A stretch of DNA of 64,000 bases, taken from a virus (Duplodnaviria > Caudoviricetes). This document shows positions 284 through 51,752 of this stretch, one piece after another. A model generated the notes under the pieces. That model did no database searches and was not told the DNA's origin. It was given only the letters and a program-made list of their open reading frames with translations. The DNA lies in IMG/VR virus record IMGVR_UViG_3300031992_000038, positions 1 through 64,000 of that record; one strand, given 5' to 3'. Made by a program: the position numbers and the translations under genes. Position 1 is the stretch's first letter. Every line of letters starts with the position of its first letter.

Positions 284-715
284 TCATTTTGGCCACATGA
301 TGATGCATGTGTCGTAGCGTTCAAACGGAACGTCGACAGAACCGGCGGCCATTGCCTTGATATATCCGGATATGACCATGCCGTCGTCGTATGATATTTC
401 TATGTCCCACACTTTGGACATCGGATATCCTTCCTTGTCACGTTCACCCAATATATTCAGTTCACCGCCAAGCGACTCAATGACTGACGCGTAGTCGTCA
501 ACGCACTGCCAGTGGTCGTCTTTGTACAGTCTTGAGTCGATACGGTACTCGTGCACCTTCTTGTATATGCGGTTTATCCTCGCCCGGACAGTCTTTGGGC
601 GTCTTCCGACGAACTTCGACACCTCCCGGTTTGCCAGGTCGTCGGACAGTGACTCGTTTATCCGGTTCATCACTTCTTTCGACACGGCACTGACGATATT
701 ATCCAACGTTCTCAT
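284..715 (-). CDS. Hypothetical protein with leader-like N-terminus
   Basis: 143 aa; N-terminus IVSAVSKEVMNRINES resembles the recurrent leader; 4-bp overlap with the protease gene. Confidence 0.7.
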   Translation of the reverse strand: MRTLDNIVSAVSKEVMNRINESLSDDLANREVSKFVGRRPKTVRARINRIYKKVHEYRIDSRLYKDDHWQCVDDYASVIESLGGELNILGERDKEGYPMSKVWDIEISYDDGMVISGYIKAMAAGSVDVPFERYDTCIIMWPK

Positions 716-1428
716 CCTCTAAGAATTGAGTCTACCTTTTTTATTCTTTCCATGAGCGAGTCACCGCTTTTCGAACGCGACTCGATATATGGGGTCAGTT
801 CCTCCCTTGTCCTTTTGATGTATGCCGAACTTGTTGAAGGCTCAAGCACGACATCCCAACACACCAGGTCAAGGTCGTCACCCACATACAGCGCGTCGAA
901 ACGTTTCTCGACCGAACCGAGCGCTCTTGACGACACGCCGACAAGAAGGTTGTCTATCAGCATGCACGCCACAAGGTCCCCGCTTGTCGAGCACACGCCA
1001 TACCTGCGGAATCCCGGTGAAAGATGGAGCTCCATCTCACCGACTAGCGTCCTGCCCTCCCAGTTCAGGTTGAGTATGTTGTGCGAGATGTCATGCCCGC
1101 TCAGCGCGCTTGACGAAGGATGGTCCAGCGAACCGACTGCGCATCTTGTCTCGACGCGCTCCTTGATGTACCTGTCAACTTCCCTGCGGAGAACATCCTC
1201 GGGGTATATCCGTCCGTTGGCGTTCTTTATTCCATATTTCTGGAACACGGCGGACACGACGAAATGGTCCGGTATCACAAACTGCTTGTTTGAACCTATG
1301 TCCTCGTTTATCTGTTTTACTGTGTCAGAGTTGGCTATGATGTGGCCGTCGCGTTCTATCAGCAGACCGCTCCCGGATTCACCGGCCTTAACCTCCCTGA
1401 TATCTGTTAGATTGTCAAATCTTGTCAT
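712..1428 (-). CDS. Prohead core protease (T4 gp21-like)
   Basis: Motifs KNANGRIYP, GSLDHP, GVSSRALGSV and WDVVLEPS. Start taken at ATG 1428 because the TATTTAT motif overlaps the ORF-track start at 1476. Confidence 0.9.
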   Translation of the reverse strand: MTRFDNLTDIREVKAGESGSGLLIERDGHIIANSDTVKQINEDIGSNKQFVIPDHFVVSAVFQKYGIKNANGRIYPEDVLRREVDRYIKERVETRCAVGSLDHPSSSALSGHDISHNILNLNWEGRTLVGEMELHLSPGFRRYGVCSTSGDLVACMLIDNLLVGVSSRALGSVEKRFDALYVGDDLDLVCWDVVLEPSTSSAYIKRTREELTPYIESRSKSGDSLMERIKKVDSILRG

Positions 1429-1491
1429 TTTTCCGTCAGAATTTATGAATGAATGGCACACTTTGGCGCCATTCAATAAATATAGGCGGAA

Positions 1492-1926
1492 TTAGCATTT
1501 TTCCATCATCTCAAAGCCTGACTTCGTGAATTTGTCGATCAGCATGGTGTTAAGCATCTTCACCAGCGGCCTTGACGAATCGACATTGTCCGCCATTGTG
1601 GTGAATGCCTTCTTCGGTTTGAGATAAAGCGAGTATTTGACGTTTGACCATTTTCCGGTCGACAGGCTTCCCTCGCTGAACTCGATGTCACACAACATCC
1701 GGTCGTCGAAGTGCTCGGAAGAGCGGACAACGCGCTCGGCCGCCTCCATGAATGCCGGTTTGATCCCGCACACACACTGCGAATAGTCTGACATCCGCGT
1801 CTGCGGACGTATCTTGCCTTTGACCTTGACATATATCACCTCAGGCGATATGTCGTTCATCACACTTACGGTGGCAGAGAACACTTTGCCGACACCGTCA
1901 ATCGGTACATTCTGATATTTTGGCAT
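1492..1926 (-). CDS. Hypothetical protein
   Basis: 144-aa ORF with ATG start in the head-gene cluster. Confidence 0.7.
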   Translation of the reverse strand: MPKYQNVPIDGVGKVFSATVSVMNDISPEVIYVKVKGKIRPQTRMSDYSQCVCGIKPAFMEAAERVVRSSEHFDDRMLCDIEFSEGSLSTGKWSNVKYSLYLKPKKAFTTMADNVDSSRPLVKMLNTMLIDKFTKSGFEMMEKC

Positions 1927-2004
1927 AAAAAATGTGGTATATCATATAGACATACCACAAAATAAAGAAAATTCAAAAAGACTTAATGTTAAGAAAAGTT
2001 AAAA

Positions 2005-2612: not shown

Positions 2613-4037
2613 TCAGTCTTTTTTTTTAACTGCGTCAAAAATTGAATCCGTGATGACGTCGATGACCTTCTCGGTGTATGGGTCACCGTTTCCGATCTTG
2701 TTTCCGTAAGGAGAGTTTCCTTTGGTCGAGTCGTCGTTCCAGTCCTTTCCGAACCTGTCTGGCATATTGTGGTTCGGGTATGTCATCGGCTCCTTGCGGT
2801 ATGCCGGATGTTTACCAAAGTCATTCAGCACAACCTCGTATATCCTCTCTCCTCCTTTGCGGCCGCGTGATTCATAGAAGTCTGTGTCATCCAAGTATCC
2901 GTCATCATCATCACCTGAAGTCAACGAATTCACGAGTTCCCTCCATTTTGCATCATCACTGACATCCTCGATACCTTTAAGATTTTGTTCATAGCCAGGT
3001 TCAGCTTCCGGGAACGGCACATCATCATCATATTCTTCATCATCGTCCGGATCGAGGTCGCTCAACTCATCGTCGGTGTAGTCTTCGTCTTTGTCCGGGA
3101 CCTCGTCAAACCCCTCGACGTCGTCAGGGTCTACGTCCTCTGATTCTGTCATGTAAGGATCTCCGTTACCGACATCGCCGGTACCGGTTCTCGGGAAATT
3201 CTGGTCGTCGGTGTTGTGCACGGCCTTCTCTTCCTTGATCGGGTCGGTGTCCGCTTCGCCCTGGTTGCTTTCGCTGCCGAGTTCGTCCGTGTACGGCGCA
3301 GAACTGCCTACGCTTGTCTCATTCCTCTTGTCCATGTAGTTGTCGGCGTGACGGTTCCATGCCAGCACCTGTTCCTCTGTCAGTTTCACGGTCTTTCCCT
3401 CGGCCACGGTTCCCTTGATGTCGTATCCGTCAGACTTGTCGGCTTTGGGTTTTTCAGTGTAAGGCGATGCTCCTTTTGTCTTAGCACCTTTTTTGTCCGG
3501 AGACTCTGTGTATGTGTCACTGGCGGGACCGTTTTCCGGTTTCTCACCCTTGTCACCGGTGGTTCCGACATAAGTGGTTTCCGCTTCCTTTCCCTCCTCT
3601 ATGAGGATGGAATTGTTCACAATCTGGTTGAAACGGTCAATCTCGTTGCGCATCTCCTTTGTCTCGTTGATCTGCCACTCGGCCGGTTTGACCGTATGGA
3701 ACTGCTCGATGACCTTCTTGCTGCCGCACGACTCGTTGATTTCCTTCATCAGCACGTCGAACTGCTTCGATGCCACAGAGTATGTCGTGTACTCATTGGC
3801 CTTTTTGTTCATGTAACCGCCTATGTAGTCGTAATCCTCGGCCAAAATCTCAGTGTCCTTTTTCGGGGCGACCTTGATGTAGAACTTGTTGCATTCGCGC
3901 AGTATTCCGTAGGTCTTTCCGTCCGCCGCCTTTACGTGGTACTCGACGACAGGAGCGCCTGACGACTTACTTGTGTCGTTGCCGAAGTTGATCAACTTCT
4001 GCATCCTCTTTATTTCGCCATCATAAATTTTGCTCAT
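2613..4037 (-). CDS. Acidic prohead core/scaffold-like protein
   Basis: 474 aa, very D/E-rich, many (L/I)xE sites (INE, IEE, LTE, IKE); near the protease; TATTTAT motif at 4084-4090. Function is inferred. Confidence 0.6.
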   Translation of the reverse strand: MSKIYDGEIKRMQKLINFGNDTSKSSGAPVVEYHVKAADGKTYGILRECNKFYIKVAPKKDTEILAEDYDYIGGYMNKKANEYTTYSVASKQFDVLMKEINESCGSKKVIEQFHTVKPAEWQINETKEMRNEIDRFNQIVNNSILIEEGKEAETTYVGTTGDKGEKPENGPASDTYTESPDKKGAKTKGASPYTEKPKADKSDGYDIKGTVAEGKTVKLTEEQVLAWNRHADNYMDKRNETSVGSSAPYTDELGSESNQGEADTDPIKEEKAVHNTDDQNFPRTGTGDVGNGDPYMTESEDVDPDDVEGFDEVPDKDEDYTDDELSDLDPDDDEEYDDDVPFPEAEPGYEQNLKGIEDVSDDAKWRELVNSLTSGDDDDGYLDDTDFYESRGRKGGERIYEVVLNDFGKHPAYRKEPMTYPNHNMPDRFGKDWNDDSTKGNSPYGNKIGNGDPYTEKVIDVITDSIFDAVKKKD

Positions 4038-4097
4038 GATTGAACTGTATATCCTTAAAAATTTGTTATTTTCTATTTACCAAATAAATAGTGCGGT

Positions 4098-4877
4098 TCA
4101 CCGGATTGAATTGACCGAGTCATATGTCTTGTTGACCCAATCCCACAATTTGTCGAGGTATCCCTCTCTCCGCAGCACCTTCCATATGATGTTTCCGCTG
4201 CTCATCTCCCTCGCCTTTGAGGACAGGCCGCTCTTGCGGAGGTTCTTGAGCCGGTCGAATATCTTGATCAGGTTGTCACATGACTTTTTCTTCGGGGCGT
4301 CGCTCTTCGACCTCCTTATCCTGCGGATCTCGTCGTCGATGTCCGTCATGTATTTCGCGGCGGTGTCCTTGATGTATGTGGTGTTCAACCTGGCGTCCGA
4401 CAGGTCCTCAGGTTCACTCACCCATTTGTTGTCCTCAAGCGAGAACACGCCGGAGGATTTTGACGGTTCACCGGAATCCTCAACCGAAATCTCGACCGGA
4501 TAACCGTATATCTTGAGCGATTCGTGCGAGTCTGACCACTCATTCTTCTTGGCGCTGAAATAATCCTTGACAAACTCTTTCCTGCGGTCCCACACTTTCG
4601 AGAAGTCCACGACCACATGCAGGTCAATGTCAGAATACTCGGACCAGTTATAATTGGCCAGCGAACCGGTGAACACAATGTCCTTCGGTTTCACCCACGG
4701 CACAGCAAGCGTGTCGACAAAGTCCCAAGCCATGTCAAGCAGCGCCCTTCGGACGTTCGGCTTGAGTCTGTCGCCGTCCCACAGCTTGCCGTTAAGTTTG
4801 TCCTTCACGGCAAACGAGTCGAGTCTTACTTCGTCTGACTCCACCTCATTGATTATTTCTGTGTCAAGTTCTAACAT
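4098..4877 (-). CDS. Pol-beta superfamily nucleotidyltransferase
   Basis: GSLANYNWSEYSDIDLHVV fits the GS-x-DxD motif; third acidic residue region VEISVE. Confidence 0.8.
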   Translation of the reverse strand: MLELDTEIINEVESDEVRLDSFAVKDKLNGKLWDGDRLKPNVRRALLDMAWDFVDTLAVPWVKPKDIVFTGSLANYNWSEYSDIDLHVVVDFSKVWDRRKEFVKDYFSAKKNEWSDSHESLKIYGYPVEISVEDSGEPSKSSGVFSLEDNKWVSEPEDLSDARLNTTYIKDTAAKYMTDIDDEIRRIRRSKSDAPKKKSCDNLIKIFDRLKNLRKSGLSSKAREMSSGNIIWKVLRREGYLDKLWDWVNKTYDSVNSIR

Positions 4878-4925
4878 TACTCAAAAATAAATAACGCGTT
4901 CTTTGGTAATTCAGAAAAAAAACAT

Positions 4926-4958: not shown

Positions 4959-6056
4959 ATGAACACTTCAAACCCTCACATCATCGTGCCGAGGCCAAGG
5001 GAGATAGTGGCATACCTGGACGAGCACGTTGTCGGACAGTCTGCCGCCAAACGTACACTCGCCGCGTCGGTGTTCAACCATTACAAGAGAGTCCTGATAA
5101 ACAAGTACGGCGCTGGCGACACGTCCGACGAGTCACTCGCCGACGTCACAGTGGACAAGTCAAACATATTGATGGCCGGGCATACAGGCACCGGCAAGAC
5201 ATACATGGTAAAGATGATTTCCAAGGCGATAGGAATACCGTGCTATGTCGCGGATTCGACGAAGATAACAGAGAGCGGATATGTCGGGGACGATGTCGAG
5301 TCAATACTTGTCGGCCTGCTTCAGCAGTGCGGGTACAACATAGACCTTGCGGAGATGGGCATTGTCGTGCTTGACGAGATCGACAAGATAGGCCGAAAGT
5401 CGGACAACCCGTCCATCACAAGGGACGTCGGCGGCGAGGGAGTGCAGCAAGGACTGCTAAAGATTGTCGAGGGCAGCGTTGTCGGAGTTCCCCCGAACGG
5501 AGGGCGCAAACATCCGGAGCAGCCACTCGTTTATGTGGACACAACGGACATACTGTTCATCGGAATGGGGGCGTTTGACGGTCTTGACAACATCATAGAG
5601 CGCAGAATGAACCGGAAATCAGTCGGGTACAACCGTGTCGACACGTCCGGATGCGACGGGAATCCTCTATCCCATGTGACGCCTGACGACCTCAAGAAGT
5701 TCGGAATGATACCTGAACTCATCGGCCGCTTCCCGGTGATGACCTACACGGACAACCTGACAGAGGATGACATGTACCGCATACTTACCGTTCCGAAGAA
5801 CAACATAATCAGCCAATACAGGAAACTGTTCTCGGTCGACAACATCAACCTCACATTCACGGACGAAGCGATAAGGAATGTGGCGTCGGCGACCATGCGC
5901 CTCGGAATAGGGGCAAGAGGGATACGCGGTGTCATGGAGAAAATAATGTCAGACGTCACGTTTGACACAGAACCGGGCGGTGATTTCACCGTAGACGTGA
6001 AATATGTGTCGGAACGGATAGAAAAAATGGCGCCGATGCTGACAAAGGCCGCATAA
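4959..6056 (+). CDS. clpX: ClpX-like AAA+ ATPase lacking the N-terminal zinc-binding domain
   Basis: [16 protein letters not shown] pore loop, [33 protein letters not shown]. Confidence 0.93.
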
Positions 6057-10733: not shown

Positions 10734-10838
10734 AAAAAAAAGGGAATGATATACTATTTGTCCTTCCTAATCTTTTAAGATAAATATCATTAAAACTCAA
10801 ATGCGGCCAAACTGACCGCATTTTCTGTATTTACAGGC

Positions 10839-10846
10839 TATTTATA
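10839..10846 (+). promoter_or_regulatory. Putative phage late promoter TATTTAT (representative site)
   Basis: On the sense strand upstream of about 15 structural or leader-bearing genes (positions listed in findings). Confidence 0.65.
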
Positions 10847-10862
10847 AGAAAAAGACTTGATT

Positions 10863-11315
10863 ATGAAGAAGACTATTAAACTTAGTGAATCAGACTTACA
10901 TAGGATTGTGAACGAATCTGTAAAAAGAATCCTAATGGAAGATTGGGAAAGCCCATTGCAACAATATAAAAACTCACCATATCCACCCGTTAATTTAACG
11001 ATAAAAGGAAAAATTGATGATTTTGACCGTACAAAAGGTTATGATTACCAATTTGACAAATCGTCTGATACGAATACAAACCATCGAGAACCAACGGCAT
11101 CTGATAAATTGAGAAAATACGGAAGCCTTAGAGGTGCTGCTATGCGATATAGAGTCAGCAATGGAAGGAATGCCGAAATAGGTGATGCTTTGATAGAATA
11201 CGGAATAGAGCAAGGTATTGAACGGGGAAATAAGTCGGATGAGCAATACGCATGGTTTATCGCAAAACTAATTGCTTCAAGGCAGATTCCATTTGACGAA
11301 AATAGCGAATATTAA
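10863..11315 (+). CDS. IS passenger protein with leader MKKTIKLSESDLHRIVNESVKRILME
   Basis: AT-rich ORF inside the TIRs; TATTTATA at 10839-10846; its stop overlaps the transposase stop (TTAA). Confidence 0.8.
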   Translation: MKKTIKLSESDLHRIVNESVKRILMEDWESPLQQYKNSPYPPVNLTIKGKIDDFDRTKGYDYQFDKSSDTNTNHREPTASDKLRKYGSLRGAAMRYRVSNGRNAEIGDALIEYGIEQGIERGNKSDEQYAWFIAKLIASRQIPFDENSEY

Positions 11316-12256
11316 CCCACCATCTTCACGTCCCAATAACGGACGATACCGATGGACTTTTCGAACATCATACGGAAGCGGCTCTCAGGGGTCGCTTCCC
11401 TTGTATTCCAACGGAACAACTGCTCGTCAATGTACCTCTGAAGATAGGTCTTGCTGACAAAGTGGTACGTGCCGAAAATCACATGCTTGAAATGCGCCCA
11501 AAAGCCCTCAACGCTGTTGGTGTGGATACCATTGGGACGAACAAACTCCTTCTTGCCGTGACTTACATAGTCGTGACGGAAACCCGCCTTGGTCAGTCCC
11601 TGATACGAAACCAATTCATCGGTCAACAGGTGTGCATTCTCACGGATGAACTGCTTGATAATGGGCATCAAGGTCTTGGCCTTGGTATCCTCGACCTTCA
11701 TGACAACGGTCTTACCATCACGCTGTAGCATACCGAAAATAGGGGTCTTGGTCTTGGTGGAGCGACCCTGTGTGCCTTCGGTCTTCTTGCTTTCGTGCTT
11801 GTTGATTTCACGGCCACCAAGGTACATTTCGTCCATTTCCACGTCACCGTCAAGGGCAACGGCATCGTCCTGTGCGTACAGGGTACGGATTTTGTGCAGC
11901 ATGTACCAAGCTGTTTTCTGAGTAACCTCGCAGTCACGGGCGAGTTGGTGAGAGGAAACGCCCTTCTTGTGTGAGGAAACGAGGTACATGGCGATGAACC
12001 ACTTACTCAGAGGCAAGTTGCTGCTTTCAAAGATAGTGCCGACCTTACAGGAGAAGTTATGCTTGCACTTGTTGCAACGGAAACGGCCATCGGTGCGCTT
12101 TACGCAGTGATGCTCACCGCAGATTGGGCAGATAACATCGTCACCCCAACGTGCTTCGGTGAGGGTGTCGATGCAGGTCTGCTCGTTGCTGAAGTGACGG
12201 ATGACCGAAACAAGGCTCTTAAACCCAGTGAAATCTATGTTATTCATGACCTTCAT
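11312..12256 (-). CDS. IS1595 (ISXO2-like) DDE transposase
   Basis: Zn ribbon CPICG...FRCNKC, VEMDEMYLGG, LLTDE, HTNSVEGFW, YIDEQLFRWN. Confidence 0.93.
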   Translation of the reverse strand: MKVMNNIDFTGFKSLVSVIRHFSNEQTCIDTLTEARWGDDVICPICGEHHCVKRTDGRFRCNKCKHNFSCKVGTIFESSNLPLSKWFIAMYLVSSHKKGVSSHQLARDCEVTQKTAWYMLHKIRTLYAQDDAVALDGDVEMDEMYLGGREINKHESKKTEGTQGRSTKTKTPIFGMLQRDGKTVVMKVEDTKAKTLMPIIKQFIRENAHLLTDELVSYQGLTKAGFRHDYVSHGKKEFVRPNGIHTNSVEGFWAHFKHVIFGTYHFVSKTYLQRYIDEQLFRWNTREATPESRFRMMFEKSIGIVRYWDVKMVG

Positions 12257-12400
12257 ACTATGTTTTCTATTATTATAGTACAAAGGTACTAGAAAATCCA
12301 GCAAAAACGGGAATATTTTTAGCTAAAGAAAGCTAGCAATCAGCTAATTAAAGCTAACGAGAGGATTTGGGGACAAATAGTATATCATTCCCAAAAAAAA

Positions 12401-12428: not shown

Positions 12429-13091
12429 TCATCTACGATAGTAAGTGTTGTAGACATCCTGAGTCAGACCATGGTCGAGCAGCACCGGCATCGCCCCTCC
12501 GTCACGTTTGGCAAGACCCCAGTTCCTGATGGCGACAATGTCGGCGTTCTCCTCTTGCGAGTTGCACAAGTAATCCTCCAGGTCGCTGAAGAACTCAAGC
12601 TCGTCGGTAAGTTCGGAATACCTTTCATCTGACATCTCTATATGCCGCCAACCGCCATACCGCGAATACCTTGCGAAAGTCGTGTAACAGAAATCTACAA
12701 ATTCGTCAAACGTCACACCCAGGCACGCCTTGAAGTCAGACCTTTTTGCCGGCAGCACATACTCGCACTCAATCCACATGTCGTTATCGTAGTCGGCCGA
12801 GAATATCCTCGGGAAAATGTCGTATCTCTGTTTCCATCCCTCCGATTCAACCCTGTTCTGCGCCGTCCCCTTCTCGTTTTTGGCGAGTTTCAGACATCTT
12901 TCGTCGTCAATCTGGAAAACCATCCGCGACGACCCGTTCCCTATCGGCTGGCCGAGATGCTCCTTGCAGTATCTGACTTTTCCGGCGTATGTCCGGATTG
13001 ACTCAAGTTCATCTGTGCTGAACTTGCCGTCTGTCGCCTCATTCAGTATGCGTGATTGCTGCTCTTCTGTCAACACTATTACTTTGTCCAT
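12429..13091 (-). CDS. Protein-kinase-like protein with leader
   Basis: IGNGSSRMVF Gly loop, CLKLAK, QNRVE, ADI..RNWG and LLDHG; leader VIVLTEEQQSRILNEA. Confidence 0.65.
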   Translation of the reverse strand: MDKVIVLTEEQQSRILNEATDGKFSTDELESIRTYAGKVRYCKEHLGQPIGNGSSRMVFQIDDERCLKLAKNEKGTAQNRVESEGWKQRYDIFPRIFSADYDNDMWIECEYVLPAKRSDFKACLGVTFDEFVDFCYTTFARYSRYGGWRHIEMSDERYSELTDELEFFSDLEDYLCNSQEENADIVAIRNWGLAKRDGGAMPVLLDHGLTQDVYNTYYRR

Positions 13092-15491
13092 TCAAATGTC
13101 CGCTGATGTCAGGGTCGAACCCTTGCCGCGGCCTCCGTCTATAATTAGCGTCGCCACGTCATCTATCACCGACTGCACGGCGCGTTTGACCGGACGTCCG
13201 CCCATCTTTCCGTCCCCGACCGAGTCCATGACCCTCTTCTTGGCCTTTTCGACAAAACTTCCGTCTACCGTGAGTCCCGCCTTTTCTATCTTTTTCACCG
13301 CGGCGGATATCTCTATGTCGGCAATCTTCGAGAGGTCATCGGGCGACAGCGGCTTGAACATGATGACGTCATCCACGCGGTTCATGAACTCCGGCTTGAA
13401 TTTTCTCCTTATGGCGTTCCTGTACACGCTCTCCGACATCCCCGTGTTCGGCGTGAACCCGATTCCGTCACCCCGGGCGGCGGCCTCAGACGCGCCGACG
13501 TTGGACGTCATGATTATGATTGTGTCCCCGAAGTCGACTGTGACACCCTTGTTGTCAGTCAGCCGTCCGTCGTCGAACACTTGGAGAAGAACGTCATGTA
13601 CTTCGTCTGCCGCCTTCTCGACCTCATCCAGCAATATGACGCATTTGCCCTTCTTCTTCACCGCCTCAGTCAGTTGCCCACCGTTCTCGTAGCCTACATA
13701 CCCCGGCGCAGAACCGTAAAGCTTGTTGACGGACATCTTGTCGCCGTATTCGCTCATGTCCAGCCTGACCATCGATTTCTCGTCTCCGAACACCTCCTCG
13801 GCGAGTTTCTTGGCCGTGTGCGTCTTGCCGGTGCCGGTGCTTCCGATAAACATGAAGACTGATGGTTTCCCGTGGTCAGAAAGTCCGGCAGACTGCCTTC
13901 TGACAACTTTTGACACCCTCTCAACCGCTTCATCCTGTCCGATGACCTTGGCCGACAGACGCTCGTAAAGGTTCTTTGTCGCGTCCGGTGAAGTCGGGGC
14001 GGAACCATTGCCGCACCGTCCGTTTATGACATCGTCAATGTCATCTTCGGTGATGTCTTGCGACCTTTCGGACATTTTCTCCTGTTTCTCAAGGAACGAC
14101 AGATGGTTTTTGAGTTCAAGCAGTTGGAAGTCGATGCGGTTTATGTCCTCTTCCGTGTACCTTGACGGGTGGTCCACGGTGTCCCTCCTGAGCGCAAGAC
14201 CCTCGTCAAGTTTCTTTTTCGCGTCCATCATCTCGGGACTGTCACCGTCCATCACGCTCTTTCGTGCCCCGGCCTCGTCGAGCAGGTCATATATGGTGTC
14301 CGGCAGCACGCATTGCTTCATCCGCTTCTTTGCCGTTTCCGTGCAGTGCCGTATAACCTCGCGCGAGAACCGCACGCCGTGGAAATCCTCCAGCGGACGT
14401 TTCGACGAGTCAACTATGTCGACACACTCTTCCACACTTTTCTCTTCCAGGTCGACACGGCAGAACCTGCGCTTGAAGAACGGGTTCGACTCGATGAGCG
14501 AAGAGTAATCTTTCGGTGTCGCAGTGCATATGAACAATATGTTGCGGTCACTCAGCATCATGTCCATGATGGTTTCTATCCCCATGTCGCTGTAGTGGGC
14601 GTCATCCGACAGTGCACTGCGTATATTGTCAATGAAGAACACGTAGCAGTCACGGCCGTGCGCCTCGTTGACCACAGACTTGAACTGTTCTTCAAATATG
14701 CCCTTTATGCCGTTGGACGGCATCAGGTCCGCAAGTTTCATCTCCATGAGTTTCCTGTTCGACAGGAACTGCGGCACATCACCGCTGACAAAGAGGTTCG
14801 CGATATGTTTCACCGTCGACGTCTTTCCGACGCCCGGCTCACCGACGAGCACGACATTGTTACGCTCGCGCCGCGCCCACACCGTGAATATAGAGTTAAG
14901 GACAGAACCGTTTCCGAACACCGGAGGAATGTTTCCGCGCTCAGCGGCCACGTTCAGGTTGGTCAACAAGTTCTCGACATAGGAGTTCGTCATGATTTTC
15001 TCTTGTCTCTGCGACTCCGCGGCAGAGGTCTCTTCGTTGTCCGGGTTCTCTTCGTATCCCCTACGTCGCTTCGACTCTTCGAGCATCTGTTTCTTGGTTA
15101 TTCCGTATCGCGACGCTATCTTGTTGGCGAACTGGCTCAGCGACAGCATGACTGACCAGAACTCGGTCGACGTGTGCGAATCCTTTCCGTCCTTGCACAT
15201 CCGCTTCATTATCGCGTCGAACTTCTGCGAGTACTCCGCTCCGTCAGAACCTGTCCCGCTGTCAGAATCTCCGCTGTTCCTCAGATGCGTGTCAAGCTCT
15301 TCAGTCATCTTGGCATAGTCGCTTGTGAGCGTTATGGACCTAAGCACAGAGTTGGCCTCGCAGTCGTCATATTCAAGAGTCCCGAGCATGAACGGCACAA
15401 CGTCTATCTTGTCGATGCCATAGCGTGGCGCTACCTCCTCGCGCACATACTTGAGCAATGCCGCCAACTCGGGAGAAATACTGTATTCCAT
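13092..15491 (-). CDS. ClpC/ClpA-type double AAA+ chaperone
   Basis: GEPGVGKT, GSTGTGKT, RLDMSEY, GYVGY, LLDEVEKA, DGRLTD and a GIGF ClpP-docking loop. Confidence 0.9.
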   Translation of the reverse strand: MEYSISPELAALLKYVREEVAPRYGIDKIDVVPFMLGTLEYDDCEANSVLRSITLTSDYAKMTEELDTHLRNSGDSDSGTGSDGAEYSQKFDAIMKRMCKDGKDSHTSTEFWSVMLSLSQFANKIASRYGITKKQMLEESKRRRGYEENPDNEETSAAESQRQEKIMTNSYVENLLTNLNVAAERGNIPPVFGNGSVLNSIFTVWARRERNNVVLVGEPGVGKTSTVKHIANLFVSGDVPQFLSNRKLMEMKLADLMPSNGIKGIFEEQFKSVVNEAHGRDCYVFFIDNIRSALSDDAHYSDMGIETIMDMMLSDRNILFICTATPKDYSSLIESNPFFKRRFCRVDLEEKSVEECVDIVDSSKRPLEDFHGVRFSREVIRHCTETAKKRMKQCVLPDTIYDLLDEAGARKSVMDGDSPEMMDAKKKLDEGLALRRDTVDHPSRYTEEDINRIDFQLLELKNHLSFLEKQEKMSERSQDITEDDIDDVINGRCGNGSAPTSPDATKNLYERLSAKVIGQDEAVERVSKVVRRQSAGLSDHGKPSVFMFIGSTGTGKTHTAKKLAEEVFGDEKSMVRLDMSEYGDKMSVNKLYGSAPGYVGYENGGQLTEAVKKKGKCVILLDEVEKAADEVHDVLLQVFDDGRLTDNKGVTVDFGDTIIIMTSNVGASEAAARGDGIGFTPNTGMSESVYRNAIRRKFKPEFMNRVDDVIMFKPLSPDDLSKIADIEISAAVKKIEKAGLTVDGSFVEKAKKRVMDSVGDGKMGGRPVKRAVQSVIDDVATLIIDGGRGKGSTLTSADI

Positions 15492-18494: not shown

Positions 18495-19019
18495 ATGGAG
18501 AATATACGAAGAATCGTTATGGAGGCAGTAAGGCGGGCAATACGCGAAGCCGTCTATGATGTCGGAGACTTCCCGATACACTCGAACGGAGACATAGGAA
18601 GGAACCCACTGACCGTGGACAATGGCGGACACGCGTCGCAAGACAAAATCACACAGGCGTCGACTGTTGACGCGTGGGGTGCGTCGTTCCAACCAAAGGA
18701 GATAAAACATCTCATGCCGAACCAATGGATTATATATAAGGTGAAGAACTTCGGAAATCCGGACATCACCGGAACACGGAGCATCTTTGCCAACGGAAAG
18801 GAGATACGGCGGGCGATAGACCTCGTCAATGGTTCGGCCGGACGCAACGGGCGCGGCGTGACATGGAGGGTTGTCGTGGATGGAGACAAAAGCCGTGAAG
18901 CCCTTATGAGCGGATACATGTCCAACGCGTTCTGGGAGTTCAGCTTGGACGGAGGATACGAGTGGTATATCCTCAAACCGGATCCTGTACAAAGACTTAA
19001 ACAAAGTTCACTGAAATGA
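18495..19019 (+). CDS. Hypothetical protein with leader
   Basis: MENIRRIVMEAVRRAIREA. Confidence 0.75.
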   Translation: MENIRRIVMEAVRRAIREAVYDVGDFPIHSNGDIGRNPLTVDNGGHASQDKITQASTVDAWGASFQPKEIKHLMPNQWIIYKVKNFGNPDITGTRSIFANGKEIRRAIDLVNGSAGRNGRGVTWRVVVDGDKSREALMSGYMSNAFWEFSLDGGYEWYILKPDPVQRLKQSSLK

Positions 19020-20918: not shown

Positions 20919-21188
20919 ATGAACAAAAGACAAATCCGAAAGATAGTCAATGAGGCCGTTTCGCAGGCACTCAGAGAAGATACTGACGCAAGGAGATATA
21001 ATCAGATGGTGGACGCGTTGCTCAGATGCCTCAGCAAAATCGGCAGACACGCCACGGCCGCCGCTTCAGAGATAGCGAACGGGAACATCAGCAGTCCGAC
21101 TGTCCAAGATATAGCAAGATGCTGCAGGACAGTGTATGAATGCGTCAACGAGATGAACGACATGTACGGAGAACCGGCTGACTATTGA
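20919..21188 (+). CDS. Hypothetical protein with leader
   Basis: MNKRQIRKIVNEAVSQALRE; TATTTAT at 20873. Confidence 0.75.
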   Translation: MNKRQIRKIVNEAVSQALREDTDARRYNQMVDALLRCLSKIGRHATAAASEIANGNISSPTVQDIARCCRTVYECVNEMNDMYGEPADY

Positions 21189-25271: not shown

Positions 25272-25342
25272 TGCGTGTAATTCAGTGTTTTTTCTTAAAT
25301 AGCGCGACGATATTTATCAGGAAAACAAACTTTACGCAAGAA

Positions 25343-40152: not shown

Positions 40153-40470
40153 ATGGACAAGATTCTTGACCTACCGCTCAAGAAAGAGTTGCACGAATTG
40201 ATTGGTCCAACCAAGGAGGATATTGCAATGCTTTATGAGAACGAGTCTAGGGAACTACTGAATGAGGCGGCCGCGGCCGACAACAGCGGCTCGTTCGAGA
40301 CCGTCGTATTCCCCATCATCCGCAGGGTATTCTCGAAACTGCCTGCAAACGACTTGGCGAATGCGCATCTCATAGAAGAGTTTCCAACGACCTTTCCTAC
40401 CCATGAATGGGCTGAGGTCATCGGCAACATCCATGATAATCCCGAACTACTAGAAAGTGACACAAACTGA
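40153..40470 (+). CDS. Chimeric ORF: major-capsid-protein fragment plus YopX-like tail
   Basis: LYENESRELLNEA...SGSFETVVFPIIRRVFSKLPAND (gp23-like N-terminal region); EVIGNIHDNPELL (YopX C-terminus). Confidence 0.6.
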   Translation: MDKILDLPLKKELHELIGPTKEDIAMLYENESRELLNEAAAADNSGSFETVVFPIIRRVFSKLPANDLANAHLIEEFPTTFPTHEWAEVIGNIHDNPELLESDTN

Positions 40471-44203: not shown

Positions 44204-47200
44204 ATGAAAAAATTTGCAAACCTCCAGAAGGAGGTAAAGACTGTCAAATTTGGGCTTAAGCCAATTGGAATGACAGAAAAGTTCATCAAGGATAGAGGTC
44301 TCCTTGACGCGCAGTATTCAATCAACGACAGACTGGAAGAGGCGAAACTGGTCCTTGACCGTGTATATCTCGATGTCCTCAGCCGAAGTATGTCGTCCAT
44401 TGACCCGAAAATCGCTGACGGGTTGTATGACGTGTGGCTGAAAGACCAGAAAAAGTTCACTAACAGCAATGAGTTCAATTCCGCTAAAGATACATTTGTT
44501 GGCAAAATTAAAGGATATATTAGAGAACTAATTAAAACCGAGAAAGAAAATTATGACTTTAATGTCAATAATATCCTAAACGATATAGACACCTTCTGCG
44601 GTGGGGATGATGTCTTAAAGAGCGAACTACACAGCATTAAGAATGACTTTAGCGGACGTTCAGCTTATTTCACGGAATATTGCACCAGCAAAAACCCTGC
44701 ATTGTTCGGAACCGAAACAAATTCTTCCTCATATCGTGTCTTTAATGAGAACCTTGTGACATTCTTCAAGAATGTGAAAGCGTTCCGCTCAATCAGTCCT
44801 GATCAAATGACGACGGTTCTTAAATTTGTTGATGGTCTCGATGAAATCATGGTACCGGATAATGGTTTGAAGTATATTCTGCAATCAGACATTGACGTGT
44901 ATAATAAGGTGATTGCTGAATACGCTTCTGCGCGACAGGAACTCCAAAGCAAGGACAAGGGGTTGAGCCTTCCGAAACTTGAGAAACTCGCGAAGCAGAT
45001 TCTTTCTGAGGCCGAGAAGAAATTCCAGCCAATCGAGAGTGACGAGGAGGTGTTTTCGTTCCTGGACGAGAACATCGAAGACCTTACGTCCGCAATATTG
45101 AAACTGAAAGAGTTGTTCAGTGGGATTGGTTCGATTTATGACAAGGAGAAAATCCTGATTGCAAAGAAGGTGAAGGCTAAAAAGGATGAATTCTCCATGA
45201 TTTCGAACGCCTGCATGCATAGTTGGGACGGAATAAAGAACCTAATCATAGAGAACTGGAAGGCTGAAAATCCTAAGGGTAAGGAAAACGTAAAGGACAA
45301 GAAAGCAAACAAATTCTACAAGCAGTTAAGCAATATTTCATTGCTTGAACTTGAAAAAATCACGAACAGTGATGCGGCAACATCTTATCTGATCGGACTA
45401 GGCGAGAAGAACGACAGAGAACTTCAGGAGGCTGACCTTGCTTCACTCGCCATAAACGCTTACAACGTGTTCAAGGAAGAACACGAGAAGGGTCTTGACA
45501 AGAGACTCAAGAACATTGATAACTCAAAGAACATAAACGCATTCTTTGACACGCTGATTAGACTGAAGGACTTCATCTCCCAGATATATGTCGGAGAGGG
45601 CATAGATGACACCTGCGAGTTCTATCAGGAACTTCTTCCTGCGAAATGCAAACTCGAGGAGGTTGTCAGTGAGTGGGTAAGAATCCGAAGTTACCTCACC
45701 AAGAAGGACTACATTCAGAACGAACTGCGTGTCTATTTCGGATTGAACGCGAATTTGATGGGTGGGTGGACACACAAAGAGAATGGTGAGTTTCCAAAAC
45801 GTTCAATTATGTTCAAGGGTGTCGGGGACGATTATTATGTCGGAATTCTTGCTGGGGTTTCCAGTGCCAAAAAGATTTTAAATGGAGAAATAGGTGACGG
45901 AAGATTCCGATATCTTGACATAACAAATTATGACAAAAAGAATATCGAAAGACTTGTTCAAACTTTTTGTGGTGGCAAGAAACCAGATGAAGATGGCCTT
46001 ATTAAAGTCCTCACAAGCAAAGAATGGGCACAAAAGTACCCAAAGTTAGTTTTGGAGAAAACCGATGGGTTCAGCAGTACAGACGAAATCTATAAATCAC
46101 TTTGCCATCAAGAAATGAGATGGGTTGCATGTTCACGCGAAGCCGTAGACACGATGGTTGAGAGTGGTGATTTGTATCTCTTCAAACTTTCTTGTCGGGA
46201 TTTCAGCAAGCATTCAAAAGGTAATCCACAACTGTACACTATGTACCTGCGTGCGCTGTTAAGTGACGACAATCCGATTGGAAGATATTTCATCAATGGT
46301 AACGGAAAAATCACTTTCAGACCGAGGACAGTTGTCGACAATACAAATATTGGTGATTTCGCCATCCACAGGGCAAATTTCCCCATTGATAACAAGCGGA
46401 ACATTGAAGGCGGTGAGAAAAGTGCCACGTATCCATATGACATTGAGAAGAACAAGCGTTTCAAGTCGGATTCATGGTTCATCAGTTTACCGTTATCCGT
46501 GAACGAAGGCAAGAAAATCACCCAAAAGGAAATCAATGACCTTGTCAACGGCATGATTTCAACCGGTGAGATTAAGCACGTCATCGGTATTGACCGCGGC
46601 GAAAGGAACCTTGTCACCGTATCTATCGTGAACAAGGACACAATGGAAATCGTTGAGCAAAGAAGTCTGAACATCATCGGCAACACAGACTATAACAAAC
46701 TCATGGATGAGATGAGCGAGAACGTTAAGGATGATAGGAACAATTTGCGATTGGAAAGTTCGATGAGAAACATGTCCGAAGGTTATGTCAGCCATGCCGT
46801 GAATGAAATAGTACAACTTGTCAGGAAATACAATGCAGTAATCGCGATGGAAAACCTGGACAATCTTGGGCGCGGTAAAATCATCAAGAACATCTACACG
46901 AAGTTCGAGAACCAGTTATTGGACAAACTGTCGTTCATGGTGTTCAAGGATGTTGACAAGAACGACATTGGTGGCGTATACAATCCGCTCACGATGGCAA
47001 TAAAGAAGACGGACCAAACTAAATATGAAAAAACGTTGTCGCAGAACGGTATTGTTTTTTCGGTATTGCCTCAATACACATCAAGCATCGACCCTGTAAC
47101 TGGTTTTGCGAATGTGCTTGACATGCAGAATGTGAAGACTATTGACTCGATCAAGAAGTTCTTCTACTCATTCGACTATATACGCTATGACAAGGAACAT

Positions 47201-47824
47201 GACCATTTCGTGTTTGGCGCCGACTGGAAGAAATTCAAACTAAAGAACAGTGTAAAGGTGAATGAATTGAACAGGACCGAATGGACACTTGTGTCAAGTG
47301 GAATAAGGATCAGGTACAAAAAGACAAAGAACAGTTCGCACCGAACCATTGAGGAGCATGACCCTACTGAGGAACTCAAGAGAGCCATCGGAAGGTCTGG
47401 AAACAATTTCATGGAATGCGGAAACATCAAGAACATAATCATGAACCAGGACTCACATGACATCCTTGACGAATTCCTTGATGCGGTAAAACTGATTCTG
47501 CAGATGAGAAACAGCAAAGGGGAAGAGGACTACATCCTGTCACCGGCGCTAGACGAAAACGGAAAGCAGTTTGACTCACGTGAGCGTCATGGACAAACAA
47601 TGCCGAAAGACGGTGATACGAATGGCGCTTACAATATCGCAAGACGGGCCGTTATGCTCATCAGGAATGGTGATGACAATAAATATGACAGCAATGTGCA
47701 CTGGTTGAATTTTGCGCAAACCGAAGGAAGAATGCAAACCTTAGGTAATGTGCAAAGTACAAATTTTGACAACGAGTTCAAAACTAATGAGTTATGTTAT
47801 TCCGCATCGAAAAGGGTGGGGTAA
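44204..47824 (+). CDS. cas12a: Type V-A CRISPR effector Cas12a (divergent, 1206 aa)
   Basis: N-terminal KTVKFGLKPIG; RuvC-I IGIDRGERNL; RuvC-II IAMENL; YTSSIDPVTGF; LQMRNS; RuvC-III DGDTNGAYNIARR; adjacent V-A-like array. Confidence 0.93.
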   Translation: MKKFANLQKEVKTVKFGLKPIGMTEKFIKDRGLLDAQYSINDRLEEAKLVLDRVYLDVLSRSMSSIDPKIADGLYDVWLKDQKKFTNSNEFNSAKDTFVGKIKGYIRELIKTEKENYDFNVNNILNDIDTFCGGDDVLKSELHSIKNDFSGRSAYFTEYCTSKNPALFGTETNSSSYRVFNENLVTFFKNVKAFRSISPDQMTTVLKFVDGLDEIMVPDNGLKYILQSDIDVYNKVIAEYASARQELQSKDKGLSLPKLEKLAKQILSEAEKKFQPIESDEEVFSFLDENIEDLTSAILKLKELFSGIGSIYDKEKILIAKKVKAKKDEFSMISNACMHSWDGIKNLIIENWKAENPKGKENVKDKKANKFYKQLSNISLLELEKITNSDAATSYLIGLGEKNDRELQEADLASLAINAYNVFKEEHEKGLDKRLKNIDNSKNINAFFDTLIRLKDFISQIYVGEGIDDTCEFYQELLPAKCKLEEVVSEWVRIRSYLTKKDYIQNELRVYFGLNANLMGGWTHKENGEFPKRSIMFKGVGDDYYVGILAGVSSAKKILNGEIGDGRFRYLDITNYDKKNIERLVQTFCGGKKPDEDGLIKVLTSKEWAQKYPKLVLEKTDGFSSTDEIYKSLCHQEMRWVACSREAVDTMVESGDLYLFKLSCRDFSKHSKGNPQLYTMYLRALLSDDNPIGRYFINGNGKITFRPRTVVDNTNIGDFAIHRANFPIDNKRNIEGGEKSATYPYDIEKNKRFKSDSWFISLPLSVNEGKKITQKEINDLVNGMISTGEIKHVIGIDRGERNLVTVSIVNKDTMEIVEQRSLNIIGNTDYNKLMDEMSENVKDDRNNLRLESSMRNMSEGYVSHAVNEIVQLVRKYNAVIAMENLDNLGRGKIIKNIYTKFENQLLDKLSFMVFKDVDKNDIGGVYNPLTMAIKKTDQTKYEKTLSQNGIVFSVLPQYTSSIDPVTGFANVLDMQNVKTIDSIKKFFYSFDYIRYDKEHDHFVFGADWKKFKLKNSVKVNELNRTEWTLVSSGIRIRYKKTKNSSHRTIEEHDPTEELKRAIGRSGNNFMECGNIKNIIMNQDSHDILDEFLDAVKLILQMRNSKGEEDYILSPALDENGKQFDSRERHGQTMPKDGDTNGAYNIARRAVMLIRNGDDNKYDSNVHWLNFAQTEGRMQTLGNVQSTNFDNEFKTNELCYSASKRVG

Positions 47825-47895: not shown

Positions 47896-48597
47896 GTCTA
47901 TCAAAGATAAGAAATACCTACTTGTGTAGGTTTTTATGGACACAATGTCCGACTCTGCGGTCTATCAAAGATAAGAAATACCTACTTGTGTAGGTGGAGT
48001 GGTGCAGACAGATGTCCGATAAAGTCTATCAAAGATAAGAAATACCTACTTGTGTAGGTTATATAAAACCATGAAAAAATGAAGTAGTCTATCAAAGATA
48101 AGAAATACCTACTTGTGTAGGTCTTGATTGAGACGATGTCCGACTCTGCGGTCTATCAAAGATAAGAAATACCTACTTGTGTAGGTTAATCAGTTGGGCG
48201 GAGAAATTAAGCGCGTCTATCAAAGATAAGAAATACCTACTTGTGTAGGTGACATCTCACTTCCATGCTCCTTCAAAGTCTATCAAAGATAAGAAATACC
48301 TACTTGTGTAGGTCGGTTGTCAAACTTGATTCCTGTCTTCGTCTATCAAAGATAAAAAATACCTACTTGTGTAGGTTAAGGAGGGCTTACAGGCTATTGG
48401 GATGGTCTATCAAAGATAAGAAATACCTACTTGTGTAGGTAGGTTATTAGTTATTTTCAGCGTTTTCGTCTATTAAACATAAGAAATATCTACTTGTGTA
48501 GGTATTGGGACTTGACAAACTTACAATTCTTCGTCTATTAAAAATAAGAAATACTTACTTGTGTAGGTACAATTGGACACCAAGTCTATTAAAGATA
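47896..48597 (+). CRISPR. CRISPR array: 11 full 36-bp repeats plus a truncated 12th; ten spacers of 27-29 bp and a final 15-bp spacer
   Basis: Repeat GTCTATCAAAGATAAGAAATACCTACTTGTGTAGGT starts at 47896, 47960, 48024, 48087, 48151, 48215, 48278, 48341, 48405, 48468 and 48533; partial at 48584; degenerates distal to cas12a. Confidence 0.98.
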
Positions 48598-49463: not shown

Positions 49464-49486
49464 TTGGTTTAAAAGCGCAGACAAGA

Positions 49487-49566: not shown

Positions 49567-50058
49567 TCAACGTTTGTACTTCGCCTTGGCGTCATATATG
49601 CAATTGTCCAGCTCGCTGTAGAACTGTCCGCTAAGGTACTGCAGTCGCTTCTCGTACTCGTACTCTTCGTAGTGGTCATAGAACTCTTCTTCCGGAACCT
49701 TGTCGTATATTTCGTTCTCGTTGCTCGCCGGCATCACCTCGTCAAGGTCGAAATCGAGAGTGAATGCGGTGCTTTTAAGGCCACATATGACGGTGTCGCG
49801 CAGGAACTCATCGCCGCCTGCGGCGTTGATCGCATTCAGCACCTTTTCCATCTGTTGCTGCTCGATTTGCAAGTAGCGGAGCGCTGACGGGTTGTGCAGT
49901 TTTTCGTCCGCCTGTGACACCAGTTCCGCGAACTCGTTGTATATATTCTCCAGCGGTGCCGTGTCGACACTTGACGATGACTCGTTCAGTGCACGCCTAA
50001 CGCTTTCCGAGACAATTCTTCTTATATAGTTTCTGGTGATGTTTGCTTTTCTTGCCAT
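49567..50058 (-). CDS. Hypothetical protein with leader
   Basis: ITRNYIRRIVSESVRRALNES; TATTTAT at 50081-50087. Confidence 0.75.
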   Translation of the reverse strand: MARKANITRNYIRRIVSESVRRALNESSSSVDTAPLENIYNEFAELVSQADEKLHNPSALRYLQIEQQQMEKVLNAINAAGGDEFLRDTVICGLKSTAFTLDFDLDEVMPASNENEIYDKVPEEEFYDHYEEYEYEKRLQYLSGQFYSELDNCIYDAKAKYKR

Positions 50059-50155
50059 ATCATTCTTTGTTTGTCTTGACATAAATAGCGGACTATCTGT
50101 GGATTTTCTTTATGTGTCATGTGCAGTTGCCAAACCTAATGCGATACACCGAAGG

Positions 50156-51250
50156 TCAAATGTTAAAAGCAGCGAACGCCCTCACGCGAACGTCGCCATA
50201 GACATTACTCTTATCGCTGTATGCCACGCTACCAAGGCTGTTGAGCTCCCACGCATGGATTGTATCGTTCTCTGTCGAAGACCAACACCAATATCCCAAA
50301 GAATCGCAGTCCTTCGTGTAGTCGCCGAACTGAACGGCCGAGGATCCGAGCGCATCGAGCGACTCGTTAATCTTCTTGGCCCTTGTGTACAGGTATCCGA
50401 GTTCTCCGATTGCGGGCAGGTACCAATCACCTTGAGAGGTACCGATTGTGCTGAACAGGTGGCACGCGAAAGCGGCTGGATAGTTCGCCGTATTGTTAGC
50501 GAACGCGCCGCTTGAATAGGTGTCCTTGATTGCGGACAGGTTGACGAGCACTTCGGTGTTCGCCTTGCCGTCCATGTCGGCGAGAGCTTGCCCTGCCGTG
50601 ATGTATGCCGGATTCTGAGAACCGTCCGAGGTGTATGGGGAAATGACAAGTTCGCTGTCCGATACGACGTGAGTATATTGCTTGCTAATTGTCCTCCACC
50701 AAGCAGTCTCGGTGTCGTCCGTGTTGTCTTGGGTGGTCATGTCATACGTGCCGTCACCTATGATTGTTATTTGGGTCATTCCCTTGTACAGGTCGCTCGG
50801 GAAGTAACCGTTCATGTTCGTTCCACCTGTGGTCTTGATTGTGGTGTAGTTCGTCAAACCATCGACATGTGTTCCTTTCACACCCCAAAACAGGTTCGTG
50901 CCGTTGGTCGCTGCGTTATCGTTGCCTGTACCGAGCGTGCCAGTCTGCGGTGTCTTGTACGACATGTTGCACAACGACATGCCCCTGCATTTTCCGTCAG
51001 GCATGTGTGATGCAGGAATCACGACCACCGCAACGGGTGTGCCGAGTGACGAGTTCCATTCATCCTTGCTTGTGGATTTCAGTGCCGTTCCATCATAGTA
51101 GATTATGTCACCGGCTTTGGGCTTTGGCTTGTTGTATGTCACCTCGTCTGTAGCGTCGATCAACGCAGTCCATGGCTCACCGTATTCCTGCCCATTATAG
51201 ACCGCGTCATGCTCCGCCTTTGTTCCAAATAAATGTAGATATTGTTCCAT
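50156..51250 (-). CDS. DUF1566/CLec-like protein, putative DGR target 2
   Basis: Close paralogue of 25343; WSSTE...RVRAFAAFNI. Confidence 0.8.
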   Translation of the reverse strand: MEQYLHLFGTKAEHDAVYNGQEYGEPWTALIDATDEVTYNKPKPKAGDIIYYDGTALKSTSKDEWNSSLGTPVAVVVIPASHMPDGKCRGMSLCNMSYKTPQTGTLGTGNDNAATNGTNLFWGVKGTHVDGLTNYTTIKTTGGTNMNGYFPSDLYKGMTQITIIGDGTYDMTTQDNTDDTETAWWRTISKQYTHVVSDSELVISPYTSDGSQNPAYITAGQALADMDGKANTEVLVNLSAIKDTYSSGAFANNTANYPAAFACHLFSTIGTSQGDWYLPAIGELGYLYTRAKKINESLDALGSSAVQFGDYTKDCDSLGYWCWSSTENDTIHAWELNSLGSVAYSDKSNVYGDVRVRAFAAFNI

Positions 51251-51410
51251 GTGTTAAAAACAGTGTTTTTTTTGCTATAAATATCTGAACATATTAGGAA
51301 TTTTGGTAATGCCGGACCAAAGTCATGACGACACAGTAGGGCGGGAAAAAACCGTTGCATAAACCTCAATGTTTCTGTGCACTATTTATCAACAAAAGGA
51401 TGAAATCATT

Positions 51411-51752
51411 ATGAGAAGAGTAGTCATAACAGAGTCGCAGTACGCCGCTTATTGTGGGTTGAGCGAGGCCGACGGCAAACTTAAGATTGACGTGGACAAA
51501 GCGGTCAAAGACATTCCGAACAGCGGAACAATGAACGCGTCACAGAAACTCAACACAGTGGCGACCAAACTCGGCAACCCGAGCGGTGTGGACTACGTCA
51601 CCGGTTCGGAGACCGGGACGCAAGACAGTTCGTCAACGTCCGGAACGGTGAACGACAGTGTGATACGCAAGTCAGACATCGACAAGGCGATGCGCGAGGC
51701 GCTGAAAAGAAACTCAAGACTTTACACGGTAAAAGACTTTCTCGCAAGATGA
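51411..51752 (+). CDS. Hypothetical protein with short leader
   Basis: MRRVVITESQY...LSE; TATTTAT at 51383. Confidence 0.7.
   Translation: MRRVVITESQYAAYCGLSEADGKLKIDVDKAVKDIPNSGTMNASQKLNTVATKLGNPSGVDYVTGSETGTQDSSSTSGTVNDSVIRKSDIDKAMREALKRNSRLYTVKDFLAR

Follow-up and report, generated by a model that had tools for sequence, protein, structure and literature searches.

A portable N-terminal leader peptide on unrelated proteins of an uncultured virus contig, and its possible role as a prohead-targeting propeptide

Introduction

The DNA analysed here (the window) is the first 64 kb of one virus contig of 115,873 bp, IMG/VR record IMGVR_UViG_3300031992_000038. Several of its genes begin with variants of one peptide, the leader (consensus MKKxIRLTESDLHRIVKESVNRILxE), and continue into bodies that are unrelated to one another. 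The leader is a portable N-terminal unit, and there is a somewhat better than even chance that it is an enlarged, portable prohead-targeting propeptide of the type of the T4 capsid-targeting sequence (CTS), longer and far more widely used than the T4 peptide. An earlier note on the window had listed eleven genes with the leader (starting at 715, 10863, 13091, 18495, 20919, 21671, 23569, 25271, 29608, 50058 and 51411) and had proposed that it loads injected effectors into the head. Three observations go beyond that note, namely the carriage of the leader by IS1595-type transposons, single copies in two Prevotellaceae isolates, and internal and C-terminal copies of the peptide.

The leader on the contig

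Two hidden Markov models (HMMs) of the leader, the first built from eight clear copies and a broader one from 122 copies, were run over all six frames of the contig. The full module of 26-27 aa was recovered in four of the eleven named genes (E 3e-7 to 6e-15). These are 10863-11315(+) (MKKTIKLSESDLHRIVNESVKRILME...; E 6e-15), 21300-21671(-) (MKRRIRLSESDLHRVIRESVKRVLRE...; E 3e-14), 23547-25271(-), which encodes a 574-aa protein (E 7e-8), and 29054-29608(-), which encodes a 184-aa protein with amphipathic repeats (MTKITLSESQLRSIIEEAVNDELQRIDE...; E 3e-7). Three further named genes carry the second half only (IRRIVxESVxxALxE; E 4e-4 to 0.018), namely 49567-50058(-) (…IRRIVSESVRRALNE; E 4e-4 over model positions 12-27), 20919-21188(+) (MNKRQIRKIVNEAVSQALRE; E 0.016) and 18495-19019(+) (MENIRRIVMEAVRRAIRE; E 0.018).

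The remaining four genes gave no significant HMM match, and the short fragments seen in them by eye (VLTEExxxRILNE, VVITESQ) are not counted as evidence. Gene 284-715(-), directly downstream of the protease gene, contains EVMNRINE and its likeness to the leader is not significant; in 12429-13091(-), a gene of PHROG 4301 (unknown function), only the first half is leader-like (VIVLTEEQQSRILNE; E 57); 21722-23569(-) (…HLKRVIHEEIIKE) matches neither HMM and no Pfam family; and in 51411-51752(+) only MRRVVITESQ resembles the leader.

The scan of the whole contig and of its relatives that the earlier note had called for yielded further copies in both. On the contig, four more full copies lie outside the window (69254+, 72188-, 109827+ and 110210+; E 4e-10 to 3e-15), the gene at 110210 has another copy at its C-terminal end (110822), and position 72002 holds a weak internal one. 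Nothing further fell below E 0.5 among the 2,661 six-frame segments of the contig, so the leader motif stands far above chance. Furthermore, the eight full copies use different codons in 66% of identical-residue pairs, both serine codon families included; this places the conservation at the peptide level and rules out a DNA repeat as the source of the likeness. Apparent matches in translated spacers of clustered regularly interspaced short palindromic repeats (CRISPR; AESDIVSIK) scored ~1 bit, which is chance level, and were rejected.

Distribution and portability of the module

The closest phages in GenBank share only 34% portal identity with the contig, and tblastn with a leader protein against 50,697 GenBank phages gave no real match, so that no cultured relative was identified. 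Ruminant gut samples are the source of the true relatives, IMG/VR contigs of 225-412 kb from uncultured phages, and identity to these jumbo-phage relatives is 45-50% for the large terminase (TerL), 54% for the portal and 42-46% for the protease. For 31 further contigs with leader copies, the CheckV estimates correspond to genome sizes of roughly 250-400 kb; the present contig is therefore probably about one third of a jumbo-phage genome.

When 1.84 billion cluster representatives were searched with a leader profile, 6,791 proteins matched at E<=1e-3, 289 of them at E<=1e-10, and the copy is N-terminal in 133 of the best 150 of these 6,791 database clusters. A scan with a back-translated DNA pattern located 76 IMG/VR loci, and whole-record scans of five jumbo contigs gave 21, 10, 32, 14 and 12 leader copies. 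The count of positions that follows covers this contig together with the 76 IMG/VR loci.

The module starts at most 8 residues from the Met start in 122 of 127 leader-bearing open reading frames (ORFs; P ~1e-120). Past residue 30, 119 tagged proteins fall into 89 BLAST families, which bears out the earlier observation that the proteins diverge into different bodies after the leader. The tagged proteins have a median length of 128 aa, their bodies are acidic on average (-4 per 100 aa), and the body of the 574-aa protein has homologues both with and without the leader. The N-terminal position, the 89 body families and the occurrence of one body in both states together identify the module as a portable N-terminal unit.

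The logo is near-invariant at L7, T8, E9, L12, V20 and L/I24. L or I fills column 24 in 95% of the copies and E fills column 26 in 83%, past which conservation breaks off abruptly. The end of the module, (I/V)-(L/I)-x-E, fits the consensus of gp21, the prohead protease of T4, and an internal (I/V)-(V/I)-x-E-S is a possible second site.

High-scoring database proteins with 2-4 leader copies are tandem fusions. Among the strong internal copies, 41 of 116 keep the Met start, and several inspected examples are preceded by a conserved translated 5' untranslated region (5'UTR; NESKNMNKK). Internal copies of this kind are fused cassettes and thus provide no argument against an N-terminal function; under the propeptide model, multi-copy fusions would yield polyproteins that are cut by the protease. 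The C-terminal stub in 110210-110905 looks like the fossil of a fused cassette. An AlphaFold2 prediction of this two-copy protein from its single sequence had a predicted local distance difference test (pLDDT) value of 39, indicated the helical state of both leader copies only, and was not used as evidence. A full-text search with leader peptide strings found no paper that describes the peptide.

Cargo proteins

The labels kinase-like, ART-like and ArdC-like, which the earlier note had given to several of the bodies, received no confirmation from Pfam or PHROGs on the proteins concerned. The 574-aa protein has no Pfam match to PF08401 (ArdcN) even at E 10, and a weak language-model lead to ArdC-N / polyvalent protein (Atlas score 0.87) is treated as a lead only. 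Across 60 tagged proteins, the tally is one Pribosyltran match and two unnamed PHROGs. The description of the cargoes as injected effectors is conjecture, because almost all of them are of unknown function. As a speculation, the small, acidic, aromatic-rich bodies would suit DNA-mimic-like anti-defence proteins.

Prohead protease and head genes

The contig encodes a portal of the Portal_T4 family (263 bits), a large terminase and a Peptidase_S77 prohead protease. The last of these, at 712-1428(-), had been named a gp21 homologue, and this identification is secure (PF03420, 68 bits against a cut-off of 27; PHROG 207, head maturation protease). In an alignment with gp21 of a T4-type coliphage and the ortholog of one relative (G005), the protease keeps His103, Ser166/167 and Asp192, and it has a conserved L-x-E near its own C-terminus. 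T4 gp21 uses the catalytic residues H85 and S140 and cuts after Glu in I/LxE (PMC12991175), in agreement with the specificity that the earlier note had given.

An S77 protease is present in five of six near-complete relative genomes. In two of the relatives (G001 and G005), the gene immediately downstream of the protease has a full leader; here, this position is held by the weak gene 284-715. G005 has, in addition, a very acidic leader protein between portal and protease, followed by a divergent 497-aa protein with a net charge of -63 and a half-leader-like start (MSKNIRSKVVRESLL). According to annotation, the same positions in T4-type phages hold the prohead core proteins gp67, gp68 and gp22.

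As a separate observation, the protease genes of two relatives are split by large insertions (L080:7810-9633 in G001, 607 aa; L082:7940-9094 in G003, 384 aa; compared with 238 aa here), with unrelated sequence between the two homologous halves.

The shared promoter-like motif

The motif TATTTA(T/A), which the earlier note had reported upstream of most of its genes, is present for seven of the eleven. A fuller form, (C/G/T)TAT(A)TTA(T/A), has 26 sites in the contig, at least 22 of them intergenic (P ~4e-11), and none lies in the array of putative early genes at 74-104 kb. This CTATTTAT-type motif typically stands 25-35 nt before the ATG. It precedes the seven named genes, the protease gene, genes 2613-4037 and 4098-4877, and the genes of putative adhesins with an EPWV module (described below).

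For the full-leader genes, the sites are CTATTTAT at 10838 (25 nt before the ATG of gene 10863), CTATTTAT at 21705 (gene 21671), CTATTTAA at 25302 (gene 25271) and GATATTTAA at 29656 (gene 29608). The half-leader gene at 50058 has CTATTTAT at 50088 (30 nt before the ATG) and that at 20919 has CATATTTAT ~45 nt upstream; no promoter motif was found upstream of 18495. Gene 51411 is preceded by CTATTTAT at 51382, 29 nt before its ATG. Similar sites are found at 1484 (protease), at 4895, and at 51285 and 59533 (adhesins). In the relatives, the motif lies at a fixed 23-34 or 41-45 nt before 70 of 143 leader genes, against ~2% expected from its density.

Some genes without a leader have the motif too. 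A CTATTTAT motif at 4084-4091(-) lies upstream of the non-leader gene 2613-4037, in the cluster beside the protease; this gene has no Pfam, PHROG or PDB match. Its neighbour 4098-4877(-), with GTTATTTAT 18 nt upstream, encodes an NTP_transf_2 nucleotidyltransferase domain (25.5 bits; PHROG 36119), which is unusual beside head genes and lies a few genes from the protease. A second shared N-terminal module, YLHLFxTxxxHDAVYxGxxYxEPWVA, begins at least nine proteins that have different bodies after it and mostly a CTATTTAT-type motif upstream of their genes. These EPWV-module proteins are encoded at 25343-26338(+), 50156-51250(-) and 58374-59501(-) in the window, and at 67744-68391, 72364-73746 and 104651-109784 elsewhere on the contig.

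Transposon carriage and host copies

The leader gene at 10863 is the passenger of a putative IS1595-type insertion sequence (IS) of 1,651 bp (10742-12392), which is bounded by 22-bp terminal inverted repeats that are 100% complementary (10742-10763 and 12371-12392). The element contains the promoter, the tagged passenger and a convergent transposase gene, 11312-12304(-), that abuts the 3' end of the passenger. Its assignment to the IS1595 family follows an earlier annotation and the zinc-ribbon-like N-terminal sequence of the transposase, and may be regarded as provisional. Homologues of this transposase, 50-96% identical, are found beside leader genes in at least 20 other loci. In addition, the leader gene at 21671 belongs to a fossil cassette, with a nine-residue remnant of the same transposase C-terminus (RYWDVKMVG*) at 21274-21300(+). 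The bodies of the IS passengers differ and the leader, nearly constant, is their sole conserved part. Within this contig, the transposase adjoins only two of ~13 leader copies.

A scan of 185,579 species genomes gave 26 leader loci, nearly all in metagenome-assembled genomes (MAGs) of rumen Bacteroidales, some of which may be mis-binned phage contigs. Two of the loci belong to cultured rumen Prevotellaceae, Segatella bryantii DSM 11371 and Prevotella sp. MA2016, and these point to Prevotellaceae as hosts. The tag is mainly a phage feature that is occasionally carried by an IS into host chromosomes.

A bolder reading, which we consider rather improbable, is that the IS1595-type transposons are mobile cassettes of promoter, capsid-address tag and cargo that shuttle between jumbo phages and Prevotellaceae. 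Host copies would be switched on by the late transcription of an infecting phage and loaded into its capsids, either as selfish hitch-hikers or as a 'Trojan horse' of the host, and recombination within the leader would allow new cargo to be sampled continuously.

The two isolate loci differ in their state of preservation. In S. bryantii DSM 11371 (L101, 6932-7195) the IS1595-type cassette with its leader-tagged passenger is a fossil and has the phage-type GATATTTAT upstream, and in Prevotella sp. MA2016 (L104, 4805-6220) a cassette of the same kind is intact.

Function of the leader

The favoured mechanism is that of a capsid-targeting propeptide. The module comprises three parts, namely a basic stretch in extended form at the start (MKKxIRL), an amphipathic helix with an N-cap (TESDLHRIVKESVNRIL) and the ending x-E. 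Tagged proteins would be made late in infection together with head and fibre proteins, and the hydrophobic face of the helix would bind a common partner in the core of the assembling prohead, either scaffold/core proteins or the inner shell, so that any body behind the tag would be co-assembled into the head. The S77 protease would then cut after the Glu of (I/L)-x-E (Glu26), and perhaps also after the internal (I/V)-x-E-S, freeing the body inside the capsid and making it able to leave with the DNA at the next infection. The family would diversify by cassette exchange, with IS1595 elements carrying promoter, leader and cargo, and with tandem fusions leaving internal and C-terminal stubs.

The sequence-level predictions of this proposal that were tested came out as expected: the N-terminal position, the unrelated bodies, the (I/L)-x-E end, the S77 protease, the shared motif, the synteny with the head module, and the existence of one body in tagged and untagged form. 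Binding to the core, cleavage, packaging and injection are steps that we infer from sequence. That the helix has a common external partner can be robustly inferred, since it could not have co-evolved separately with 89 unrelated bodies; the identification of this partner with the prohead core is a weaker step.

Several points weigh against a targeting propeptide. No member of the family has been cultured, and virion content, mature N-termini and expression are predictions from genomes. The module has 2-3 times the length of the T4 CTS, which it does not resemble in sequence, and L24 and E26 could be conserved for the structure of the helix and not for cleavage. The average acidity of the bodies is unlike the T4 internal proteins, which are basic. 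The 'late' status of the promoter-like motif is judged only from the genes that lie downstream of it. No protease is seen in one relative, G002, which is 95% complete, but the leader genes there run up to the end of the contig. Finally, over all loci, 22 of 143 leader genes are IS1595 passengers with a convergent, abutting transposase, and the two isolates hold one copy each among ordinary chromosomal genes, with no visible phage genes in the 8-kb loci; the tag is therefore not confined to phage genomes.

The common partner may also be a different one. The leader could be an uncleaved docking or oligomerisation helix that ties late proteins to a hub outside the prohead interior (the capsid exterior, the tail or an adhesin scaffold) or to each other, and the (I/L)-x-E ending would then be purely structural. 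The single hydrophobic face of the amphipathic helix, apparent in sequence and logo, would suit such a role, and the 89 unrelated bodies demand a common partner without specifying its identity. Leader genes are interleaved with the EPWV adhesin genes, with which they have the promoter motif in common. The proteins with 2-4 copies might be taken in the same sense, but they look like fused cassettes, which retain the Met and the translated 5'UTR, and not like designed repeats. A removable tag accounts better for the strictly N-terminal placement and for the abrupt end of conservation past Glu26, and likewise for the arrangement in the relatives, where leader genes adjoin the protease and sit between portal and protease. 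Docking of this kind is considered unlikely, though not far-fetched.

A recognition tag for the AAA+ unfoldases of the phage, by which late proteins would be marked for unfolding, remodelling or timed destruction, is distinctly improbable. The contig encodes a two-ring, ClpA/B/C-like Clp-type ATPase at 13092-15491(-) (AAA_2, AAA_lid_9 and ClpB_D2-small; PHROG 4871, 'ATP-dependent protease') and a protein at 4959-6056(+) whose N-terminus is ClpX-like by eye. Clp substrates are often recognised via short terminal peptides, and the weak leader-like gene 12429-13091 directly follows the Clp gene. However, a conserved helix of 26 aa is unlike the known short Clp degrons, and no ClpP was noticed on the contig, although no targeted search for ClpP was made. 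Nor would such a tag explain why the leader ends in (I/L)-x-E, why its genes lie with those for portal and protease, or why they have a promoter in common with structural genes.

Least probable, and largely rejected, is that the leader forms half of a ribbon-helix-helix-like DNA-binding or dimerisation unit (beta-strand KxIRL plus helix) for transposition control or gene regulation, with its home in the IS1595 passengers (22 of the 143 leader genes, in which it is all that is conserved) and the phage copies descended from them: the C-terminal copy in 110210-110905 does weakly match RelB_like_antitoxin (E 1.4e-3, 18.8 bits, below the cut-off of 27), but only one of nine leader peptides touches a RelB-like Pfam family and none does so at the cut-off, the logo has no conserved second helix to complete the fold, an isolate genome holds one copy against 10-32 per jumbo phage, most phage copies are not beside a transposase, and large tagged proteins such as the 574-aa one are left unexplained.

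Comparison with known systems and significance

In T4, the internal proteins (IPs) IPII and IPIII carry a CTS of ~10 aa that brings even GFP into the prohead core and that gp21 cuts off (PMC9958956). gp21 removes propeptides of 10-20 residues from IPs, Alt, gp23 and gp24, with Alt trimmed at both ends (PMC9958956, PMC5694885). Such propeptides often contain several sites, which would aid the clearance of fragments (PMC5694885). The leader resembles the CTS and propeptides of IPII, IPIII and Alt in that a short N-terminal peptide is common to unrelated proteins (Mullaney and Black 1996; PMC9958956, PMC5694885). It also resembles them in ending in an I/L-x-E site of an S77 prohead protease that is encoded nearby, in a T4-like head module. 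The portability of the T4 CTS has been shown with GFP, whereas the leader is known from genes alone. Unlike the T4 CTS (~10-20 aa, MKTYQEFIAE), the leader has 26-27 model positions and by inspection is dissimilar in sequence; it is found on 10-32 genes per genome and in thousands of metagenome clusters, compared with a handful of proteins in T4; and it is partly carried by IS1595 elements, on bodies that are mostly small and acidic.

For the polymorphic ip loci of T-even phages, Repoila et al. in 1994 reportedly observed one leader common to different IP genes. The combination of a conserved leader with interchangeable bodies is alike here, and the pattern suggests recombination within the leader/promoter region. 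The exchange units here differ in that they include a transposon with inverted repeats and tandem cassette fusions, and the scale is far larger.

Giant phages also load internal or ejected proteins via N-terminal propeptides that are removed by a protease, as in the systems of phiKZ gp175 and SPN3US gp245 (PMC5694885, PMC10052503). Paralogues in phiKZ-like phages may have identical N-termini, and their propeptides may hold several cleavage sites. Those propeptides are, however, mostly longer than 100 aa and protein-specific, with A/S/G-x-E sites for an S80 protease, whereas here one short module with an I/L-x-E end is reused. The IS1595 family in ISfinder has subgroups with passenger genes, such as ISNwi1 and ISNha5. 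The present element likewise combines a DDE transposase, terminal inverted repeats and one extra passenger gene; it departs from them in that its phage-type promoter and leader are constant while the body behind them varies, and in occurring mainly in jumbo-phage genomes. The principle of tagging thus has precedents in the T4 CTS, the T-even ip loci and the propeptides of phiKZ and SPN3US, and what is distinct here is the length, the scale and the carriage by a transposon.

If the leader is a targeting propeptide, the set of capsid-packed proteins of a large uncultured clade of rumen jumbo phages could be read from sequence. These proteins would number 10-32 per genome and belong to thousands of families, most of them unknown; Prevotellaceae hosts would probably receive them, and they would provide a ready list of candidate anti-defence or takeover proteins of the first minutes of infection. 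As a well-defined targeting peptide of greater length, the leader could also serve to load foreign proteins into T4-like heads, and the IS1595-type element would be an example of a transposon that spreads tagged cargo genes. The CTS principle, known from a few proteins of one model phage, would be extended to a general and evolvable delivery system.

Other features of the contig

The major capsid protein was not recognised on the contig, and a PDB sequence search with 51749-52864 gave two chance-level matches only (E 0.3-0.5). A 679-aa protein of G005 (L081:10893-12932), the gene of which follows that of an acidic scaffold-like protein at L081:9329-10822, is possibly the major capsid protein. 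A 52-aa stretch at 40213-40368(+), in a low-GC (guanine-cytosine) island, is 69% identical to residues 43-94 of that protein, the remainder of which has no match on the contig. Further along, 44204-47824(+) is an ORF of 1,206 aa with a Cas12a-like N-terminus, followed by a putative CRISPR array at ~47900-48200. The surrounding low-GC island has a GC content of 0.39-0.47, compared with ~0.51 elsewhere.

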